Positions 7,089 to 47,689 of a stretch of DNA of 64,000 nt are shown piece by piece. Each line of letters begins with the position of its first letter. Within the stretch, counting starts at the first letter, position 1. The notes under the pieces were generated by a model. It worked only from the letters and a program-made list of their open reading frames with translations. It was not told the DNA's origin and searched no databases. This DNA comes from Calditrichia bacterium (lineage in GTDB: Bacteria > Calditrichota > Calditrichia > RBG-13-44-9 > J075): contig JACKAQ010000002.1 of the NCBI GenBank assembly GCA_020634975.1, forward strand, positions 93,456 to 157,455, read 5' to 3'. A program made the position numbers and the translations under genes.

Positions 7089-9839
7089 TTATTTTAATAA
7101 CAACAGCTTACGTGATAGAATTTTTCCGCGAAATTTCAATTGATACACATACACGCCGGAGGCAAAATTCACAGCGTTCCAGCGTACGGAATAGCTGCCC
7201 GGTGCGTGAAATTGATCGACGATTGTGGCAACCTGCGATCCGTCGATCGCATAAATTTTCAGAGAAACCTGCCCGGGTTTTTCGATCGCGTAACCGATGG
7301 TCGTTTCCGGGTTGAAGGGATTCGGGTAATTCTGGAATAACGCAAAACCGGTTGCCGGTTCGATGCCCGGATCATCCCCGATGCCCACAGTTTGCGACGC
7401 CCAGCGCAGGTCGCCGAGTGTTTTGCCATCGCTGGCCAAACCGGCGAGCGGCGTGCCGTTCGGGAGCATAAAATTGCCGTTCGACGGATCGGCGTATTGC
7501 GGATCGATCCCGACCATTCCGGTACCGATGCCCGCGCTGCGATTGGCAATTACCGGACCAACGTTGAACGTATCGCAATAGCTAATTGTGGCAACCAGCC
7601 CTTCGATAATCACGGCTGCGCTGTCCGCCGGACTGTTGCTGAAAATGCTGTTCTTGATTTGCGCGGCATCGCAATCTTTCGCGTAAACGATGCCCGTTCC
7701 GTCGCTGCCGCAATTGTCAAACGTGACGTGATCGATGCGCAATCGCGGTTGCGGTGTGAATGGCACCTGATCGCCGCCATACACAAAAATTGCCTGTTTC
7801 GCGATATTCCAGAACGTGCAGTTGCTGAATTCCAGCCAGTCCACATTGAATTCGCTGCTGCCGATGGCTTCGTCTTTGAGGCTGATGCCGATACCGGCGG
7901 CATCGGAAAACAGGCAGTTGCTGAACACAATCGAATCCGCGAACGTGCCGGGATAGGCGTAAAAAAAGCTGCCGTCGCTGCCGTCGTTGACATCGCGGAA
8001 CAGGCAATTTTCGGCTTTCAAAATGTAATTGCGGTTCATCGGCGCATCAGTTGTTCGGATGAGATGCGTTGCCGGCGTTGCGCTGCCGGACATGCCGTCC
8101 AGTTCCAGATCGCTCAGATAAAGTTTGCCGCCATCGATAATTTCAAAAATGGTGCGCGACGTTGCACCCGCTGCCGTGTTGCGGATCACCGGACGATCGG
8201 TGCTGTCCGCCGCGCGGATGGTCAGCGCAACGGATACCGCGATGTTGCCGTCGTTGGGAAATTCGCCGGGCAGGAGTTCGAGAATATCGCCGGGCAAAGA
8301 CAGTTGCACCGCATCCGAAAGCGCGTTGGCTCCCGGCGCAACCTGTTTCACGGAAATCGAGAGCGGATACCAATCCGCACCGGTGTTTTCACCGGAAACC
8401 GGGCGAATGAGGATCGGCTCTGCGGAAAATTCATCCGCGCCGATGTCTTTGGCTGCATCGCGTGGTTGACCGTCCACGTCGTTTGTAACGTCCGGGTAAT
8501 TGCCAACCGCCGCATCAATCAGCGGACTGGTATTTTCCGGTCGCCACAGCGAATCAATGGCAAGTACCAATTGCGGATCGACAGCGGTTATGCCGGGATT
8601 GGCATCGATGCCCAGCGGCGAGCCGAACATCACGTTACCCTCGTATTGCATGTTGACCGGCGTGTCCTCGTAATCGATAATCTGTCCGCTGTTGGTCGTG
8701 TAAATCACGTTATTGGCAATCATGCAGTCGAGCGGTGGTAGCGATAACTCGCTATCTTTTCCCGCGCCGACCAAAATCGTGTTGCGGCAATTCACAAAAG
8801 TATTGAACATCACCAACGCACGTTTCACCTGAAAATAGCGGTTCAGCGGTGAATTCGGCACGCCATTCATAAAAACAAGCGGGCTGTGATAACCGCTGCC
8901 GTATAAATCCTGGAAATAGTTGTTGTAAACTTTGTGGTCCTCACCGATGATGCGCACGCCGCCCGCGCCGGTGTTGTTCGCACCGAAAAAGAAGTTGCCG
9001 TAAACCTCTGCAAAATTGCCGTGGCGCAGCGTGAGAATCCCGTCGCAATTGTAAAAAGTGTTGTAACGGAAGGTGTTGTGACCGGATTTGTTGGAAATGA
9101 TTTCGGTTTCGCCGTTGCATTCCTCAAAATAATTGTATTCAACGGTCGTGTAGGAATCATACATCGACCAGTCGCTGGTGCCGATGCGAATGGTCTCGCC
9201 GCCGTTGAAACCGAGTTCCGGACGGAAGGCAAAATAGTTGTGATCGATCCGGTGATAATTCGGCGTATTCGACAACCAGACCACCAGCGTTGTGCCGGAG
9301 TGGGTTTTGTTGCGGAAATAGCAGTGATCGACGCGGTTGTTTACGCCATACAGCGACACCCATTTGTAATCTGTGTTGATGTTCGATGGGTTGTAATCGA
9401 CGATGACCGTGTTGGTCAATCGCGAGTGGTTGGCGAGATTTCCGCTGTTTTCCCGAAATTCAATGACCGAACCGGAGGGACGGCTGCCGCCTTTGAAATA
9501 CAATCCGGATACAATCAGGTAACTCCCGGCAATGCGCAATCTGGACGATCCGTTGAGCAACACGCGACCGGGCGTTTCTGCCCGCAGCAAAATGGAATCG
9601 CCTTCCGTTCCATTGGCTTTGAACAGGATTTCTGCGTTTGTCCAGATGCCGTTGGTCATCGTGATCGTATCGCCGGGCTGAACTTGCTGCAGCGCCGCGG
9701 AAATTTCGGAAGGCGTCGAAGCCCAAAATTCCTCCGCGATCAGCGAAACGGGTAACAGCAACACAGCCATTATCCATAATTTTCCAAAAAAGCGGGAACG
9801 CCCGGAGGCGCTCCCATGTGCACAAATTTCATTACTCAT
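7089..9839 (-). CDS. PL6-family (chondroitinase B / alginate lyase fold) polysaccharide lyase with second beta-helix domain and T9SS CTD
   Basis: 916-aa ORF. N-terminal PGDTITMTNGIWTNAEILFKANGTEGDSILLRAETPGRVLLNGSSRLRIAGSYLIVSGLYF, then NGGETIRIG, GETEIISNKSGHN and GILTLRHGN blocks typical of PL6 catalytic and Ca sites. Ends FQNYPNPFNPETTIGY...GVYVYQL...RKLLLLK. Confidence 0.75.
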   Translation of the reverse strand: MSNEICAHGSASGRSRFFGKLWIMAVLLLPVSLIAEEFWASTPSEISAALQQVQPGDTITMTNGIWTNAEILFKANGTEGDSILLRAETPGRVLLNGSSRLRIAGSYLIVSGLYFKGGSRPSGSVIEFRENSGNLANHSRLTNTVIVDYNPSNINTDYKWVSLYGVNNRVDHCYFRNKTHSGTTLVVWLSNTPNYHRIDHNYFAFRPELGFNGGETIRIGTSDWSMYDSYTTVEYNYFEECNGETEIISNKSGHNTFRYNTFYNCDGILTLRHGNFAEVYGNFFFGANNTGAGGVRIIGEDHKVYNNYFQDLYGSGYHSPLVFMNGVPNSPLNRYFQVKRALVMFNTFVNCRNTILVGAGKDSELSLPPLDCMIANNVIYTTNSGQIIDYEDTPVNMQYEGNVMFGSPLGIDANPGITAVDPQLVLAIDSLWRPENTSPLIDAAVGNYPDVTNDVDGQPRDAAKDIGADEFSAEPILIRPVSGENTGADWYPLSISVKQVAPGANALSDAVQLSLPGDILELLPGEFPNDGNIAVSVALTIRAADSTDRPVIRNTAAGATSRTIFEIIDGGKLYLSDLELDGMSGSATPATHLIRTTDAPMNRNYILKAENCLFRDVNDGSDGSFFYAYPGTFADSIVFSNCLFSDAAGIGISLKDEAIGSSEFNVDWLEFSNCTFWNIAKQAIFVYGGDQVPFTPQPRLRIDHVTFDNCGSDGTGIVYAKDCDAAQIKNSIFSNSPADSAAVIIEGLVATISYCDTFNVGPVIANRSAGIGTGMVGIDPQYADPSNGNFMLPNGTPLAGLASDGKTLGDLRWASQTVGIGDDPGIEPATGFALFQNYPNPFNPETTIGYAIEKPGQVSLKIYAIDGSQVATIVDQFHAPGSYSVRWNAVNFASGVYVYQLKFRGKILSRKLLLLK

Positions 9840-11251
9840 TTCAGAAGCATCATCTTTCTGGTTTCGGATGTTACGCCGTTTACATCCAGTCTGTAAAAAT
9901 AAACGCCGGAAGTCAGACCGCTGGCATCGAACGTTACTTGCTGTTCACCGGCTGACTGGATTTCGTTCACCAATGTGGTTACTTCCGCACCGGTGATATC
10001 GAAAACGCGCAGCACAACCGCGCCGTTTTTCGGCAGAAAATAGCTGATCACCGTTCCCGGGTTGAAAGGGTTCGGGTAATTTTGGCGCAGATAAAATTCG
10101 ACTGGTGTGTTGAAACGATCATCGTCGATACCTACCGCATCGCAGTTGCCTGCCCAGCGTTGATCGCTGATCGCCACGCCGCCAAAGCCTTTGTTGCACA
10201 CTTGCGAATTGTTGGCAAGGGTGTAATCCAGATTTCCGGGATCGGCGTAATTGGGATCGTATCCATAAACTGTGGATGAATCGACCGTGCCGCCTTTGGT
10301 TGCGCTGATGCGACCGGAACCGGGCTCCGGCGCTGTAAACGAATTCACGTTGAACGTATCGATATGGCTGACAACCGAGCCGAGTTCCTGAATTTGTAAA
10401 ACATAATCATCGCGACCGTGACCGGATTCCCGGGAATTGGTTACCAGAATATTCCGGGCGATTGTACCGCGATTGTTTTTCACAAACATCATCCGGGTTG
10501 CGCTGGCGTTGACGGTCAGGTTTTCGAATAATGCGTAAGCATCTTGGGTGCTGGTGTCCAGATCTGCATAAAAACGGATGCACTCGGCATCGATATTTGT
10601 GAATGTGCAGTTGCGAACAATCAGCGAATCGAGTGCGCGATCGATGGGATATTTTTCCGTTTCGGAGATGCGGATCGCTTCGTATCCGGTGTTGGCGAAC
10701 GAGCAATCTTCGATGCGAATCGTTCCGGCATCCACGCCTGTCAAAAAGTAAAATCCGTGACCATCTTTCGATAAGTCTTTGTCTTCATAAAAGTTAACGA
10801 AATCGCAATTGCGAATGGTTACGTTTAAACCGACTTTCGGCTGCGGGAATCCGTCCGGACCTTCGCCGACGCGAATGGCGTATTTCATGCCGTGGGTTGC
10901 CGGGTGTCCGCCATCAAAAATGACACCTTCCACAACAAAATCATTGTGAACGCGGAAAATTTCCAACTGGGTGCCGTTGGCGTCGCTGTGGGTGAGGATG
11001 GGTTTATTGGTCAATCCCGGTGCCGCAACAATGGTTAACGGGTGTTTAACTTGAAAATAAACCGTATCGGTGGTGGTGTACACGCCGCCATCGGTCACCA
11101 AAACCAACGAATCGATCATATTGTTGAACGCAAAATCCATAGCCAATTTGAAATCGAACTGATCGTCCACTTCAATTTTGCTGGCGAATAGCGGGTTTGC
11201 AAACATCAGCAGTATCATGCTGATAAAACCTGTTATCGCTAATTTCTTCAT
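9836..11251 (-). CDS. secreted beta-helix protein of an uncharacterised family, T9SS CTD
   Basis: Start set at ATG 11251 (MKKLAITGF...), preceded by AGGAGG. The longer track ORF only extends through the tandem repeats. Conserved block GYEAIRISETEKYPIDRALDSLIVRNCTFTNIDAECIRFY is shared with the protein at 19969-22917. CTD: RQNYPNPFNPGTVISY...RKMMLLK. ATGA overlap with the PL6 gene. Confidence 0.65.
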   Translation of the reverse strand: MKKLAITGFISMILLMFANPLFASKIEVDDQFDFKLAMDFAFNNMIDSLVLVTDGGVYTTTDTVYFQVKHPLTIVAAPGLTNKPILTHSDANGTQLEIFRVHNDFVVEGVIFDGGHPATHGMKYAIRVGEGPDGFPQPKVGLNVTIRNCDFVNFYEDKDLSKDGHGFYFLTGVDAGTIRIEDCSFANTGYEAIRISETEKYPIDRALDSLIVRNCTFTNIDAECIRFYADLDTSTQDAYALFENLTVNASATRMMFVKNNRGTIARNILVTNSRESGHGRDDYVLQIQELGSVVSHIDTFNVNSFTAPEPGSGRISATKGGTVDSSTVYGYDPNYADPGNLDYTLANNSQVCNKGFGGVAISDQRWAGNCDAVGIDDDRFNTPVEFYLRQNYPNPFNPGTVISYFLPKNGAVVLRVFDITGAEVTTLVNEIQSAGEQQVTFDASGLTSGVYFYRLDVNGVTSETRKMMLLK

Positions 11252-39812: not shown

Positions 39813-39852
39813 CAAAAAGCCGGTGCAGCAATTTGCACCGGCTTTTTTTTTA
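39813..39852. terminator. bidirectional rho-independent terminator
   Basis: AAAAA-agccggtgca-gcaatt-tgcaccggct-TTTTTTTT between convergent tkt and the Cys-rich gene. Confidence 0.7.
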
Positions 39853-39859
39853 TTTTTTG

Positions 39860-42004
39860 TCATCTGTTGGGATTCACCCGGCAGGAAATGACCGTTCCAA
39901 TCCAGCCGACCAGATTCAATCCGGTATTCCAGATCAGCATTATAAGCCAGCCCCATGCCCAAACACATGCACCGATGATAAATTCCAGCCAACTGACCAC
40001 CAGTTGCACTAACCCCAAACTACCGACTTCGAAAAATATTTTGCACATCGACGGACGGCAGGCCACAATCCACCAGATAAATACGCCAACGCCCGCGCCG
40101 AACAGCAAAAGACCGATCGGTACCAATTTTAATGCACAGAATGGGCAAGTGCCGAAGTAAAGAAATATAAAACCTGCACTGATGAGCACTTGCCAGAGGA
40201 GCACCATCCAATCATCGCACCATGTTGGGCGGCAACACCACCACCAAAAGAGTAAAATGGCGATGGTGATCAGAATGGCGATGACCAGAACAACTGGCGC
40301 GACCCACACTGCAATTGCAGCCCAGCCCGCGGTTTGGGGGATCAACGGATTGACGACCACTTTTGCACAAATCCAGACGGCTGCTGCCATCGCCGAGATA
40401 GTTGCGAAAAATATGATTGCCAATCGCAACAGCCAGCAGTCGATGCAAAATGTATCTGTCCGGCAACCGCGGAGGGTTACGCTGGCCGAACGATCCGGGC
40501 AGTTGGGATCGGCGTTTGCGGCCGTAACGGTAACGGTGGTGCTGGGCGGCGTGGTTCTCAAAAAGCAGCATCCGCCGATGGCAGAACCATCGAAAGTGAT
40601 GGTTGCCTGTGTGCCGTTGCCGAGTGGGGTTGCACCGGCAGACCATTGTAAATCCACATTTTCCAAATCACCGCCGGTTGCTTCCAGAAAATAGACCCCG
40701 GAATTTACGCAGCCTACGGTATTCACCGTATTTCCCGCGGTATCGGTAACGGTGATGCCGAGCGCTTCGTCCGGGCAGTCGCAGGCAACCAATGTAATTG
40801 CGTCGCTTAAAACCGGGCAGCCGTCGATCAGTACTGCCACGCTGATTTCCACAACTTCGCCTTCAGACAAATCGTAGCTAAACTCTGTTGTGGTGAATCC
40901 GGGTTGCAGAACGCCATCAACACTCCACGAAATTTGCATTTCCGGAGCATCCGGTTCAACCAGCACAATTGAGTATTTTGTTGCGGGAATGCAATCTTCG
41001 GTATCAATATCGATGGTGTTGCCAAGAGGATCGAGCACTGCCAAACGGGCGCGATCCGGGCAGCGTTGGCAACCGCTGAGCACCACGCTGTCTGCCAACG
41101 GGGGGCAATCCGGAGCGACGACCGCCACATTTATTTCCAGCGATTGCCCGGCAGAAACACTCACATCCAGTGTGCTGCCGGTTTGTCCTTGCTGCAACGT
41201 ACCGTTAATCGTCCACGAAAACGTCAGGTTTGATCCGGACGGCTGAACCACTTTTACTGAATAATTTCCCGGGTCCAGACATGCCAATTGATCGATGTCA
41301 ACGGTGTTGCCCAGCGCATCGCGGACTTCTGTTGATATCTGATCCGGACACGGCTCGGACGGACAATGGGGCAAATTCACCGTAACTTGCCCGGGCGGGC
41401 AGCCCTGCGGAAACACAATTCTGAACTCTGCAACATAACTCAGATTGTTTGGATCACTCGCGTCGTATTCGTGGGCGATATCCACCGGGTTTGCGCTAAA
41501 AACTTCGGACGATGAATTTTCGCCATCGCCGAAATCCCATTCATAAATGGTAGGGGTTGGCGCATTATTTACCGTCGCACGAAGCGAAACCAATCGTTTG
41601 CCATCGTTGGCGCAATTTTGTGAAATAGACAGTATTTCAACATTTACGGAGGGACACGGGTCGGTATCTGCCCGGCAGGTCAGCCCGTCGAACGCCTCAC
41701 TGTTGCCACATGTCGGTTCATCGCAGCAAAATGCTTCCACCACCAGTTTTTCGACGTTGCTGCAGGCAAAATCTCCGGTGGTAAAATCGCCGTTTGCGGC
41801 GTCGAACAGAATAATCCATTCACCGTTTGGATTGATATTTTCGGTTTCCAACACCGATGTTTCGGTGCCATTCAGTGTATTGATGACCTTCACACAAATT
41901 TTTTGGCAATCCGTTACAGTGCCGGTAACCTCAAGTTTTGAGGGTGGCTGCCCGGATCCCGGAACAATTCCGGAAATACCGGAAATGATTATCTGACATG
42001 CCAT
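39860..42004 (-). CDS. orphan cysteine- and tryptophan-rich repeat protein with C-terminal polytopic membrane domain
   Basis: 714-aa ORF with ATG behind AAAGGGGA. No N-terminal signal peptide. One PKD-like segment (YEWDFGDGE). Three ~95-aa tandem modules each begin C-P-D. About six C-terminal hydrophobic spans. Details are in the findings. Confidence 0.6.
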   Translation of the reverse strand: MACQIIISGISGIVPGSGQPPSKLEVTGTVTDCQKICVKVINTLNGTETSVLETENINPNGEWIILFDAANGDFTTGDFACSNVEKLVVEAFCCDEPTCGNSEAFDGLTCRADTDPCPSVNVEILSISQNCANDGKRLVSLRATVNNAPTPTIYEWDFGDGENSSSEVFSANPVDIAHEYDASDPNNLSYVAEFRIVFPQGCPPGQVTVNLPHCPSEPCPDQISTEVRDALGNTVDIDQLACLDPGNYSVKVVQPSGSNLTFSWTINGTLQQGQTGSTLDVSVSAGQSLEINVAVVAPDCPPLADSVVLSGCQRCPDRARLAVLDPLGNTIDIDTEDCIPATKYSIVLVEPDAPEMQISWSVDGVLQPGFTTTEFSYDLSEGEVVEISVAVLIDGCPVLSDAITLVACDCPDEALGITVTDTAGNTVNTVGCVNSGVYFLEATGGDLENVDLQWSAGATPLGNGTQATITFDGSAIGGCCFLRTTPPSTTVTVTAANADPNCPDRSASVTLRGCRTDTFCIDCWLLRLAIIFFATISAMAAAVWICAKVVVNPLIPQTAGWAAIAVWVAPVVLVIAILITIAILLFWWWCCRPTWCDDWMVLLWQVLISAGFIFLYFGTCPFCALKLVPIGLLLFGAGVGVFIWWIVACRPSMCKIFFEVGSLGLVQLVVSWLEFIIGACVWAWGWLIMLIWNTGLNLVGWIGTVISCRVNPNR

Positions 42005-42390
42005 ATTATTCCCCTTTATGGGTTGAATAGTGTGGAATAGTATTTAATGTAAATGATCTAACTTAGAAATAATTTGAAGTGCAAGCGGTTCGCGAATAAT
42101 GAGAATAGCAAAATGAAATGTATTTTTTAGATGCCGAATAAAATATGAATATATTATGAAAAATCCAACGTTTGCGCCCGACAATTTTGTATGAAAATTT
42201 GCGAAGCCAATTTGCCGTTTCGTAAACCTGTGAGCCTACAAATGCCGTTCGCTGACGATTCTTCCGGTAAATTTTACAAAAATAAAATGTAAATTTAACC
42301 ATTTTGTGACGAATGTTTTTTGTTGTCTCTGAAATTCTGTTTTAAATTATGTGTAATTTTTTTTCAACCAATTTTAATTAAGGGTATTCA

Positions 42391-42846
42391 TTGAAATACG
42401 TAAATGCATTTATTCTGATGGTGTTTTTTGGCACGGTCGCATGCCAAAAAACGGATAAAACCGCAGAGCATTCTCAAATGCAATCTGCAGATTCGGCGGT
42501 TGTTTACCAAGCACCCGTTGTTGCCGAAAATATCCCTCCCGGACAATGCCGTTTGGTTGGCAAAGTTGTTGAAACGGGTAATCCTGTGATTATTGCAGTG
42601 GAAAAAATTATCGGATACGGTTCCGGATTCAATGTACCGATTGCCGTTGGCAACCAAATTCCGGTTGAATTTGCCCAAAACGGAACGGGCAGTTCCGACA
42701 CGGTTTCCCAACCATCGCTTCCCTCCGAAAATTTGCAACCCGGTGATTTGATTCGCACAGATATTCGTCGAAAAACGGATTCTTTCGATCAGCTCAACCG
42801 CCAGTTGATTGTTTTTATCGCTTATCAATTCGAAAAAATACAGTGA
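42391..42846 (+). CDS. small lipoprotein, unknown function
   Basis: 151 aa, TTG start. Signal peptide with lipobox FFGTVAC. No recognisable motif. Confidence 0.45.
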   Translation: MKYVNAFILMVFFGTVACQKTDKTAEHSQMQSADSAVVYQAPVVAENIPPGQCRLVGKVVETGNPVIIAVEKIIGYGSGFNVPIAVGNQIPVEFAQNGTGSSDTVSQPSLPSENLQPGDLIRTDIRRKTDSFDQLNRQLIVFIAYQFEKIQ

Positions 42847-46954: not shown

Positions 46955-47122
46955 TTTCAGAATGATGCGCCTGGTATTTCAATTTGATAATCCAGTTCTT
47001 GTGAAAATTATCCAAGTTGCTGTTTTTGTTGGATTTGAGAAAACACGAACTGTGTGGCACAGTTGTTGAACTTTATTGTTCGAATTACGGATCAAATTCT
47101 CAAATCGATAAAAGGAGTAACA

Positions 47123-47689
47123 ATGCAAGTTGAACAATTTCAAGCAATTATCATCGGCTCGGGGCAGGGTGGGGGACCGCTAGCAACGGATTTGGCAGAA
47201 GCCGGATGGAAAACCGCCCTCATTGAAAAAGGAAATCCCGGCGGAACCTGCGTCAATCGCGGATGCACGCCCACCAAAACCGTTGCCGCCAGCGCACGGG
47301 TTGCTCATTTGGTCAGCCGTGCGGGCGAATTCGGTGTGCGAACCGGTCCGGTAGTTATCGATCTGCCAGCCATTCTCAATCGGAAAGATGACGTTGTCGA
47401 ATTGTTTCGGAAGAGCGTTAAAAAATCGTTTAAAAATGTGGAAAATTTGACCTTTATCAGCGGCGAAGCGCGGTTTACCGGCGAAACGCGCGGCAAAATG
47501 AAAGTGGTCATTGATGCGAAAACCGACTGCATTTTGGGGTGCGCAATTCTGGCGCCGGAAGGCGGCGAGGTGATGTCTGCCCTGCAAATGGCGATGATGG
47601 GCGAACTGCCATACACCGAAATCCGTGATGGCGTTTTTGCTCACCCAACGATGACAGAATCGTTGAACAATCTGTTTGAAACGGTATAA
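47123..47689 (+). CDS. internally deleted pyridine-nucleotide-disulfide oxidoreductase remnant (open frame retained)
   Basis: Start at ATG 47123 behind AAGGAG. The N-terminal FAD/redox-centre part is IIGSGQGGGPLATDLAEAGWKTALIEK...GGTCVNRGCTPTK. It joins directly to the C-terminal dimerisation part, KVVIDAKTDCILGCAILAPEGGEVMSALQMAMMGELPYTEIRDGVFAHPTMTESL. Total length is 188 aa, where this family is normally about 450 aa. Confidence 0.7.
   Translation: MQVEQFQAIIIGSGQGGGPLATDLAEAGWKTALIEKGNPGGTCVNRGCTPTKTVAASARVAHLVSRAGEFGVRTGPVVIDLPAILNRKDDVVELFRKSVKKSFKNVENLTFISGEARFTGETRGKMKVVIDAKTDCILGCAILAPEGGEVMSALQMAMMGELPYTEIRDGVFAHPTMTESLNNLFETV

Follow-up and report, generated by a model that had tools for sequence, protein, structure and literature searches.

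Why should a bacterial protein carry the paired cysteines of a disulfide-bonded stalk when it has no signal peptide, and why should such a stalk be held in the membrane by its C-terminal end? This question is raised by a gene in a 64,000-nucleotide stretch of a Calditrichia bacterium genome (assembly GCA_020634975.1, contig JACKAQ010000002.1, positions 93,456 to 157,455; the whole stretch is called the window below). Our best guess, drawn from sequence comparison and structure modelling, is that its product is a fibre or stalk protein anchored in the inner membrane, one of a multi-phylum family that has not been described and whose function is unproven. Known PKD and immunoglobulin-like (Ig) repeats are joined here to an anchor of a new kind, and the location predicted for them is unexpected. 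Two rules clash in this protein: a missing signal peptide and the positive-inside rule mean a cytoplasmic location, whereas invariant paired Cys in Ig/PKD domains mean extracytoplasmic disulfides. The gene and its start signal are as follows.

39860-42004, minus strand: complete coding sequence, 714 amino acids (aa) plus stop, ATG start; 38 Cys and 23 Trp
42010-42017, minus strand: Shine-Dalgarno-like (ribosome-binding-site-like) motif AAAGGGGA, 6 nt 5' of the ATG

The product contains exactly 38 Cys, as had been estimated in an earlier note made from the letters of the sequence, along with 23 Trp, 10 Lys and 2 His. Could this be an ordinary PKD adhesin, secreted by Sec or by the type IX secretion system (T9SS), whose start has been mis-called, or a decaying or spurious open reading frame (ORF)? 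Its PKD similarity would fit such an explanation, as would the large number of T9SS cargo genes nearby. However, an in-frame TAA is located at 42044-42046, 13 codons upstream of the ATG, with no alternative start in between, and the ribosome-binding site is good. An N-terminal extension is therefore excluded and a hidden signal peptide is impossible. No signal peptide is present in the window protein itself: its first 40 residues lack a hydrophobic N-region (the 19-residue Kyte-Doolittle mean peaks there at about 1.07, as measured on the 99%-identical P0001). The absence of a leader, which the earlier note had claimed, can thus be taken as settled. The T9SS sorting domain (Por_Secre_tail, TIGR04183) gives only an internal match at aa 419-446, with 12.2 bits against a cut-off of 23 bits.

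The gene is also maintained. A 90%-identical orthologue is found in the same gene order on the complete chromosome OZ245730.1, a Calditrichia metagenome-assembled genome (MAG). Compared with the 90%-identical Calditrichia orthologue of locus L010, the ratio of nonsynonymous to synonymous substitution rates (dN/dS) is 0.093 for the whole protein; taken part by part, it is 0.064 in the membrane domain, 0.10 in the head and 0.105 in the Ig modules. Both this orthologue and a 60%-identical one retain all 38 Cys. The frame is under purifying selection and has many homologues; it is not a chance ORF. With a dN/dS of 0.09, and with an N-terminus conserved from residue 1 in about 95 sequences, we regard the mis-called adhesin and the spurious ORF as refuted. 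The earlier note had named three outcomes that would have ended its case, and what we found instead is no characterised family, existing homologues and a low dN/dS.

How widespread is the family? A word-indexed search found 8 relatives, and an exhaustive profile search gave 3,608 matches below 1e-3, of which 210 were below 1e-30. Among the best 150 profile matches we chose 94 proteins shorter than 1,100 aa with Cys in the first residues; together with the window protein they form the head alignment (n=95), and a second set has n=34. Counted at 50% identity, about 90 cluster representatives have the same architecture, so the protein is not the orphan it had been called. Members among the best 150 matches are mostly 420-990 aa long, have no signal peptide and end in 3-8 hydrophobic helices. 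All 95 N-termini in the alignment align from residue 1 (M-[A/P/T/S]-C-x-I-x-I...VxGTA...C), and nearly all of these sequences have C-terminal transmembrane (TM) helices. Cys 3, 33, 81, 93, 99 and 110, together with the C117-P118 that starts the next module, occur in 96-100% of them. One member, P0012, adjoins queA-tgt-yajC-secDF, and the neighbouring Tgt is 84% identical to that of Sedimenticola. The family therefore occurs in at least two phyla, in Gammaproteobacteria as well as in Calditrichota. It is seen mostly in metagenomes. Alignment-driven locus searches gave matches solely in two Calditrichia genomes, or none, and a word-index search with the head domain gave no match.

In libraries of known families the protein has almost no place. 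When the whole protein and its parts were compared with Pfam, NCBIfam, PHROGs and PADLOC, only sub-threshold PKD and DUF11 matches were obtained; no family of the anti-phage defence models (PADLOC) or the phage families (PHROGs) was matched. Ten diverse family members likewise had no match in these four libraries beyond PKD, and a search of PDB sequences with the whole protein had none at all. The remark in the earlier note that no known family could be assigned is in agreement with this. As far as such comparisons can tell, the family is undescribed and has no characterised relative beyond PKD/Ig similarity. The annotation "PKD domain-containing protein" conceals cases of this kind.

What is the soluble part made of? 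In a full-length AlphaFold2 model (7-sequence alignment, mean pLDDT 76), five beta-sandwich domains at aa 4-112, 119-210, 224-311, 320-407 and 416-513 are followed by six helices at aa 523-710. The soluble part can be divided as follows.

41657-42004, minus strand: N-terminal head beta-sandwich (aa 1-116); six invariant or nearly invariant Cys; pLDDT about 88
41351-41656, minus strand: PKD-like module 1 (aa 117-218; YEWDFGDGE); Cys 117, 131, 202, 214
41063-41350, minus strand: Ig/PKD-derived module 2 (aa 219-314), CPD start; Cys 219, 242, 300, 312
40778-41062, minus strand: Ig/PKD-derived module 3 (aa 315-409), CPD start; Cys 315, 338, 396, 408
40454-40777, minus strand: Ig/PKD-derived module 4 (aa 410-517), CPD start; Cys 410, 432, 502, 514; weak DUF11 similarity

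The head, called Cys-rich in the earlier note, has no special fold of its own: by profile it resembles the Ig-like RII extenders of RTX adhesins (4p99, E=4.6e-10; 5irb, 0.055) and also other Ig domains of surface proteins. In some members it is duplicated in tandem. The PKD-like segment and the three modules of about 95 aa can be aligned with one another and share a C-P start and a CPx7LxxC end, so that the tandem repeats with conserved Cys proposed before are real. In the window protein PKD similarity is confined to aa 139-168 and remains below threshold (19.8 bits with a cut-off of 23.5, and 18.5 bits with a cut-off of 27); the family members P0020, P0125 and P0094 exceed the Pfam thresholds (PF00801/PF18911). 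With profile E-values of 1e-60 to 1e-90, the modules are homologous to PKD repeats of Bacteroidota T9SS cargo proteins that bear signal peptides. Two of the four Cys in a module, the one that starts it and the one ahead of its last strand, have their counterparts in the Cys pair of these secreted repeats; the remaining two are specific to this family. From the model, each PKD-derived module would have one Cys pair at its N-terminal and one at its C-terminal end; in module 1, Cys 117/202 would be the bottom pair and Cys 131/214 the top pair. For modules 2 to 4 the predicted pairs are 219-300, 242-312, 315-396, 338-408, 410-502 and 432-514, and for the membrane domain 523-591, 596-649 and 654-708. 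Module 4 has an additional lineage-specific CC at aa 479-480.

Where two modules meet, 0-6 residues separate the Cys that ends the first from the Cys that opens the second, vicinal CC included. At one and the same junction the spacing ranges from 0 to 4 residues among homologues, which favours independent Cys pairs; fixed four-Cys metal sites at the junctions, which we had considered, are unlikely for this reason.

The rest of the protein is a membrane domain, and it is the part for which we can offer no precedent.

40220-40447, minus strand: membrane hairpin repeat 1 (aa 520-595); C523, TM1, C546, TM2, WWWC(C591)RP
40046-40219, minus strand: membrane hairpin repeat 2 (aa 596-653); C596, TM3, C620PFC623, TM4, WWIVAC649RP
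39863-40045, minus strand: membrane hairpin repeat 3 (aa 654-714); C654, TM5, C680, TM6, C708RVNPNR tail

The six hydrophobic spans that had been suspected are six helices in the AlphaFold2 models, and the suspected duplication of a WWxxxCRPxxC motif is equally well founded (FWWWCCRPTWC at aa 586-596 and IWWIVACRPSMC at aa 643-654). Modelled alone from 24 sequences, the domain is a compact six-helix bundle (pLDDT 90.5, pTM 0.85). Homologous membrane domains are present in about 80 cluster representatives. A Foldseek comparison of the model with PDB yielded no match with E<1 (the best E-value was 1.0), and the profile of the domain matched 0 PDB sequences. A Pfam scan with E up to 10 returned two chance DUF matches only, with no MerT, MerC, DsbD_TM, DsbB or VKOR among them. 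The earlier note had thought the anchor novel-looking, and by these comparisons the domain does seem new in kind, with no counterpart in Pfam, NCBIfam or PDB. That a family with such a domain should be found in at least two phyla is, in our opinion, reason enough to draw attention to it.

A profile-profile alignment of its three thirds places their Cys in register, with a common unit of [P-x-x-C]-helix-C(turn)-helix-[W..C-(R)-P]. With hhalign, units 1-2 give P=4.8e-5, units 2-3 give 6e-4 and units 1-3 give 0.1. Such values suggest, but do not prove, that a helical hairpin is repeated three times. Natural variants exist that are without unit 1 (P0006 type) or without unit 3 (P0007 type). The number of helices is even in all variants, which means that sidedness is kept. 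C596 and C649 are invariant, and C523, C591, C620 and C654 each occur in 89-95% of the sequences. At its turn, unit 2 has either CC or CxxC, the two being mutually exclusive (p=3e-7). Pairs of Cys that seem to be lost together (523-591, 546-620 and 623-680) are not relied on here, since they are confounded by phylogeny and by alignment shifts. In the membrane core, Gly, Trp, Gln605 and Tyr616 are conserved and no charged residue is, so that an anchor or oligomerisation module fits better than a transporter.

Could the Cys of the membrane domain be there for their thiol chemistry? The rings of Cys at both membrane faces and a ladder of Cys pairs in a cytoplasmic stalk might bind or relay thiophilic metals (Hg, Cu(I), Cd or Zn) in the manner of MerT, MerC and MerF; they might also serve transmembrane thiol-disulfide exchange, as in DsbD and CcdA, or a redox sensor. 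The invariant and nearly invariant Cys just listed all lie at helix ends, two C-(R)-P-x-x-C turns would be adjacent on the predicted cytoplasmic face, and Mer transporters interchange CC and CxxC just as the turn of hairpin 2 does. DsbD moreover joins an Ig-fold domain with a Cys pair to a TM domain that bears Cys. The likeness to these systems consists in Cys pairs (CC or CxxC) at the membrane boundaries, more of them on the cytoplasmic face. In addition, one relative of a second protein class (described below) is flanked by DsbD and a thioredoxin/AhpC-like gene. Nevertheless, we could detect no sequence or fold similarity to the Mer proteins or to DsbD and CcdA, whose Pfam models were silent even at the permissive threshold, and the number of helices and the repeat structure are different. 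The window gene is in no mer or redox operon, and no metal-resistance or redox genes are conserved beside genes of its own class (class 1 below). Ligands other than Cys are almost missing (His or Met), the membrane core has no conserved polar pathway, and the variable junction spacing speaks against fixed Cys4 sites here as well. We consider a thiol function of this kind quite unlikely.

On which side of the membrane is the stalk? Over 72 sequences, 429 Lys and Arg residues are located before TM1, in loops 2-3 and 4-5 and in the C-terminal tail, compared with 28 in loops 1-2, 3-4 and 5-6. The direction of this bias is the same in 71 of the 72, and one is tied. Signal peptides are missing from all of the about 85 proteins that carry the membrane domain, and the C-terminal tails of several relatives are rich in Arg. 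Bacteroidota proteins with homologous PKD repeats have a signal peptide and a T9SS C-terminal domain, and never this membrane domain. Missing signal peptides, charge bias, an even number of helices and the Arg-rich tails in some relatives together predict a cytoplasmic location for the entire Ig stalk and for both ends of the protein. The word "ectodomain" in the earlier note was thus an assumption that the family does not bear out. The topology problem that the same note had sensed is genuine and becomes sharper at the family level: a stalk predicted to be cytoplasmic has a Cys pattern, two plus two per module, that looks like disulfides.

One way out would be to suppose that the prediction is wrong and the N-terminus is outside. 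The protein would then have a five-domain periplasmic stalk with disulfides made by DsbA, reaching toward the peptidoglycan or the outer membrane, and would be an envelope spacer, a receptor or an adhesin. Its export would need no signal peptide and might make use of the hairpin-repeat domain itself. Several observations agree with this. The number of Cys is even, with 2+2 per module and vicinal CC at some junctions; the bottom pair is that of PKD repeats which are truly secreted; the head is homologous to extender domains of extracellular adhesins. Fold searches with the full model gave only generic multi-Ig matches (PDB, BFVD), and every one of them is an extracellular multi-Ig protein. Just four conserved Cys (546, 620, 621/623 and 680) would face the cytoplasm. 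On the other hand, the family-wide want of signal peptides, a Lys+Arg bias that is opposite in 71 of 72 sequences and the Arg-rich tails all stand in the way, and signal-less relatives exist that have no TM domain. Sec-independent translocation has been documented for N-tails of about 100 residues (ProW) and is not known for tails of 500 to 1,200. An N-out orientation is, in our estimation, unlikely. Its boldest form states that the stalk is of the disulfide type and extracytoplasmic without a signal peptide, and that the triple Cys-stapled hairpin domain is, or recruits, a new translocation and anchoring device. We find this very doubtful. If true, it would mean a new route for large N-terminal domains, folded or foldable, across the inner membrane, against the positive-inside rule; any external location of the stalk would at least imply that an unknown export route exists.

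The reading that we prefer, tentatively and as a possibility short of an even chance, is that the protein is a cytoplasm-facing Ig/PKD fibre anchored in the inner membrane, serving as a tether or spacer, with its Cys pairs as latent cross-links. The hairpins would insert with their tips toward the periplasm, leaving the connectors that bear Arg and Lys, together with both termini, in the cytoplasm; from this arrangement it follows that the stalk, roughly 20 nm long, would project from the inner face of the cytoplasmic membrane. The N-terminal Ig domain would be the distal binding tip, and the membrane domain would act as an anchor or oligomerisation module, not as a transporter. More speculatively, the protein might be a tail-fibre-like tether, comparable to Cis13, that ties a cytoplasmic contractile injection system (CIS) to the membrane. 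Equally speculative is the suggestion that the Cys pairs are reduced in the living cell and that oxidising conditions, such as stress or lysis, lock the stalk. If the stalk is indeed cytoplasmic, bacteria have membrane-anchored Ig fibres on the inner side, which may be tied to phage-tail-like machines or to redox-gated mechanics.

The idea of a tail fibre comes from a second protein class, which shares the PKD modules with the class of the window protein (class 1). Some of its members (about 1,250 aa) share the membrane domain as well, and they have no signal peptide. Their N-domain of about 165 aa is conserved (M..LIP.P..L.ER..I.SG.I...GVIFT...GGYY.E...VFG) and has no match in Pfam or PDB. 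Signal-less relatives without any TM domain occur, too. One of these, P0017, is a class-2 PKD-repeat protein of 3,055 aa in an extracellular CIS (eCIS) locus (L017 1-20502, on a Logan contig of SRR23274238): a CIS_TMP tape-measure gene, two eCIS_core toxin genes and a ParA-like gene are upstream and an AAA ATPase gene is directly downstream. P0017 may be a giant component of the tail-fibre type. Its locus is a precedent for the signal-less synthesis of Cys-paired PKD fibres; it is no proof that the window protein serves a CIS. CIS components are produced in the cytoplasm, and phage tails assembled in that compartment are reported to carry disulfide networks (PMC10811340, PMC13576161).

Several points weigh against a cytoplasmic tether. 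The Cys pattern, exactly 2+2 per module, is typical of extracytoplasmic disulfides, and disulfides normally cannot form in the bacterial cytoplasm. Like secreted PKD proteins, the soluble part has an acidic composition and few Lys. The sidedness of the stalk is a matter of prediction only. As for a CIS, none of its genes (Pfam families) is present in the 64-kb window, and neither a CIS nor any conserved partner gene was found within 10 kb in nine independent class-1 contexts. The class-1 head is different from the N-domain of P0017, whose locus is the one of its kind that was examined. Two class-2 genes with TM helices are outside CIS loci.

Some side observations concern the relatives. In L008, a 286-aa mini-paralogue (9088-9948) is directly upstream of the class-2 TM-bearing gene P0112 (10001-13801); it has a single PKD-like module and a multi-TM tail, rich in Trp and Cys, that ends in QCC. 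DsbD and a 494-aa thioredoxin/AhpC-like gene are also near P0112, and the related locus L018 retains the sensor-kinase and response-regulator neighbours of the P0112 locus. P0027 and P0104 join the same PKD modules and membrane domain to a third, unrelated N-domain of about 185-300 aa (MPVFYLELYRKAIPDFF...NAHLNP...FYQQPLLR); they have no signal peptide, and the N-domain has no Pfam match.

We know other systems with which the family can be compared. Among the closest are the PKD cargo proteins of T9SS in Bacteroidota/FCB bacteria (PF00801/PF18911, with CHU_C or Por_Secre_tail), whose homologous repeats likewise open their first strand with Cys and have G-C ahead of the last strand. In these proteins a signal peptide is present at the N-terminus and a sorting domain at the C-terminus, with no TM domain; the present family has neither signal nor sorting domain, a second Cys pair per module and a six-helix membrane end. 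RTX adhesins with RII extenders (Marinomonas MpIBP, 4p99; LapA-type) also use chains of Ig domains as rigid spacers and lack a Sec signal. They are secreted by type I secretion through a C-terminal signal, stiffened by Ca2+ and poor in Cys; our family, in contrast, has a head with six conserved Cys and a polytopic membrane C-terminus, and the window protein has no RTX or hemolysin-type Pfam match. As an analogy only, with no homology claimed, one may think of the eukaryotic titin and filamin, cytoplasmic chains of Ig domains that serve as spacers and are not anchored in a membrane. Titin Ig domains carry conserved Cys, and their oxidation alters the mechanics of the molecule. With Cis13 of Anabaena, which is tail-fibre-like and holds a thylakoid-anchored cytoplasmic CIS on the membrane by a C-terminal TM helix (PMC8894136), and with fibre-type eCIS proteins, the comparison is one of architecture, not of sequence. 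Like the window protein, they are signal-less, made in the cytoplasm and elongated, and, if the sidedness predicted here is correct, the C-terminal anchor would in both cases enter from the cytoplasmic side. In Cis13 a single TM helix is combined with a trimeric coiled stalk, and the gene belongs to a CIS cluster; the window gene encodes six helices and an Ig stalk, and it stands alone with no CIS genes nearby.

The immediate surroundings of the gene are the following.

39814-39847, no strand assigned: GC-rich hairpin with a 15-bp stem, an A-run bordering one side and a T-run the other; terminator for both this gene and the convergent transketolase gene
42005-42390, no strand assigned: AT-rich divergent promoter region, 386 bp, GC about 0.33, common to the gene of the 151-aa lipoprotein-like product
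42391-42846, plus strand: lipoprotein-like ORF, 151 aa, TTG start, signal peptide ending ...FFGTVAC

The gene is monocistronic and insulated in the way the earlier note had described, by the hairpin terminator on one side and the 386-bp divergent region on the other. Rfam matches at the hairpin are sub-threshold and terminator-like, with no others. No riboswitch or known RNA was found by Rfam in the upstream region, which is about 80% pairwise identical to the orthologous region, the same as other intergenic regions. A value of 89% "mean column identity", which would have meant strong conservation, was rejected as an artefact of the measure. A 79-aa ORF within the region (42063-42302, minus strand) was rejected as a conserved gene because a 1-nt indel disrupts its frame in the orthologue.

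The lipoprotein-like ORF has no Pfam or NCBIfam match. As a conserved neighbour, for which the earlier note had suggested looking, it does not hold up: it is kept beside the gene only in the closest Calditrichia relative. The small proteins encoded upstream of the gene in four family loci are related neither among themselves nor to the lipoprotein of the window, and so yield no conserved partner. T9SS proteins of the Sortilin/BNR type near three loci were also rejected as a partner because their similarity, at 22-27%, is only at the repeat level.

A CIS locus in the window was likewise rejected; the left flank is a large polysaccharide utilisation locus of the alginate/pectin type (1263-31395, mostly minus strand). 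Its enzymes are chondroitinase-B-like, heparinase II/III-alginate lyase and beta-helix proteins with T9SS C-terminal domains. Transport is represented by a TonB-dependent receptor, a PorV/FadL-like porin and a tripartite ATP-independent periplasmic (TRAP) transporter (DctPQM), and the rest of the locus by KduI, two short-chain dehydrogenases/reductases (SDRs) and a GntR regulator. Further window genes encode a methyl-accepting chemotaxis protein (MCP), transketolase, a lipoprotein-like protein, T9SS cargo, DUF4396, superoxide dismutase (SOD) and a BON-domain protein.

In other family loci (L001 1-9060; L020 3111-5507 and 12957-17194) the genes around members are of the mobilome or defence type, with PIN/Phd, HicAB and MNT/HepT toxin-antitoxin pairs, a NACHT/STAND-like ATPase and transposases. 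These surroundings hint at an accessory-genome placement of some family members.

Finally, a 211-aa ORF in the window (47054-47689, plus strand) is a FAD pyridine-nucleotide-disulfide oxidoreductase that aligns only with positions about 2-119 and 368-439 of the 459 in the profile. Compared with a Calditrichia MAG, which has a 475-aa ORF at this place (L010 3492-4919), about 820 bp are missing, so that the oxidoreductase gene of the window is internally deleted.

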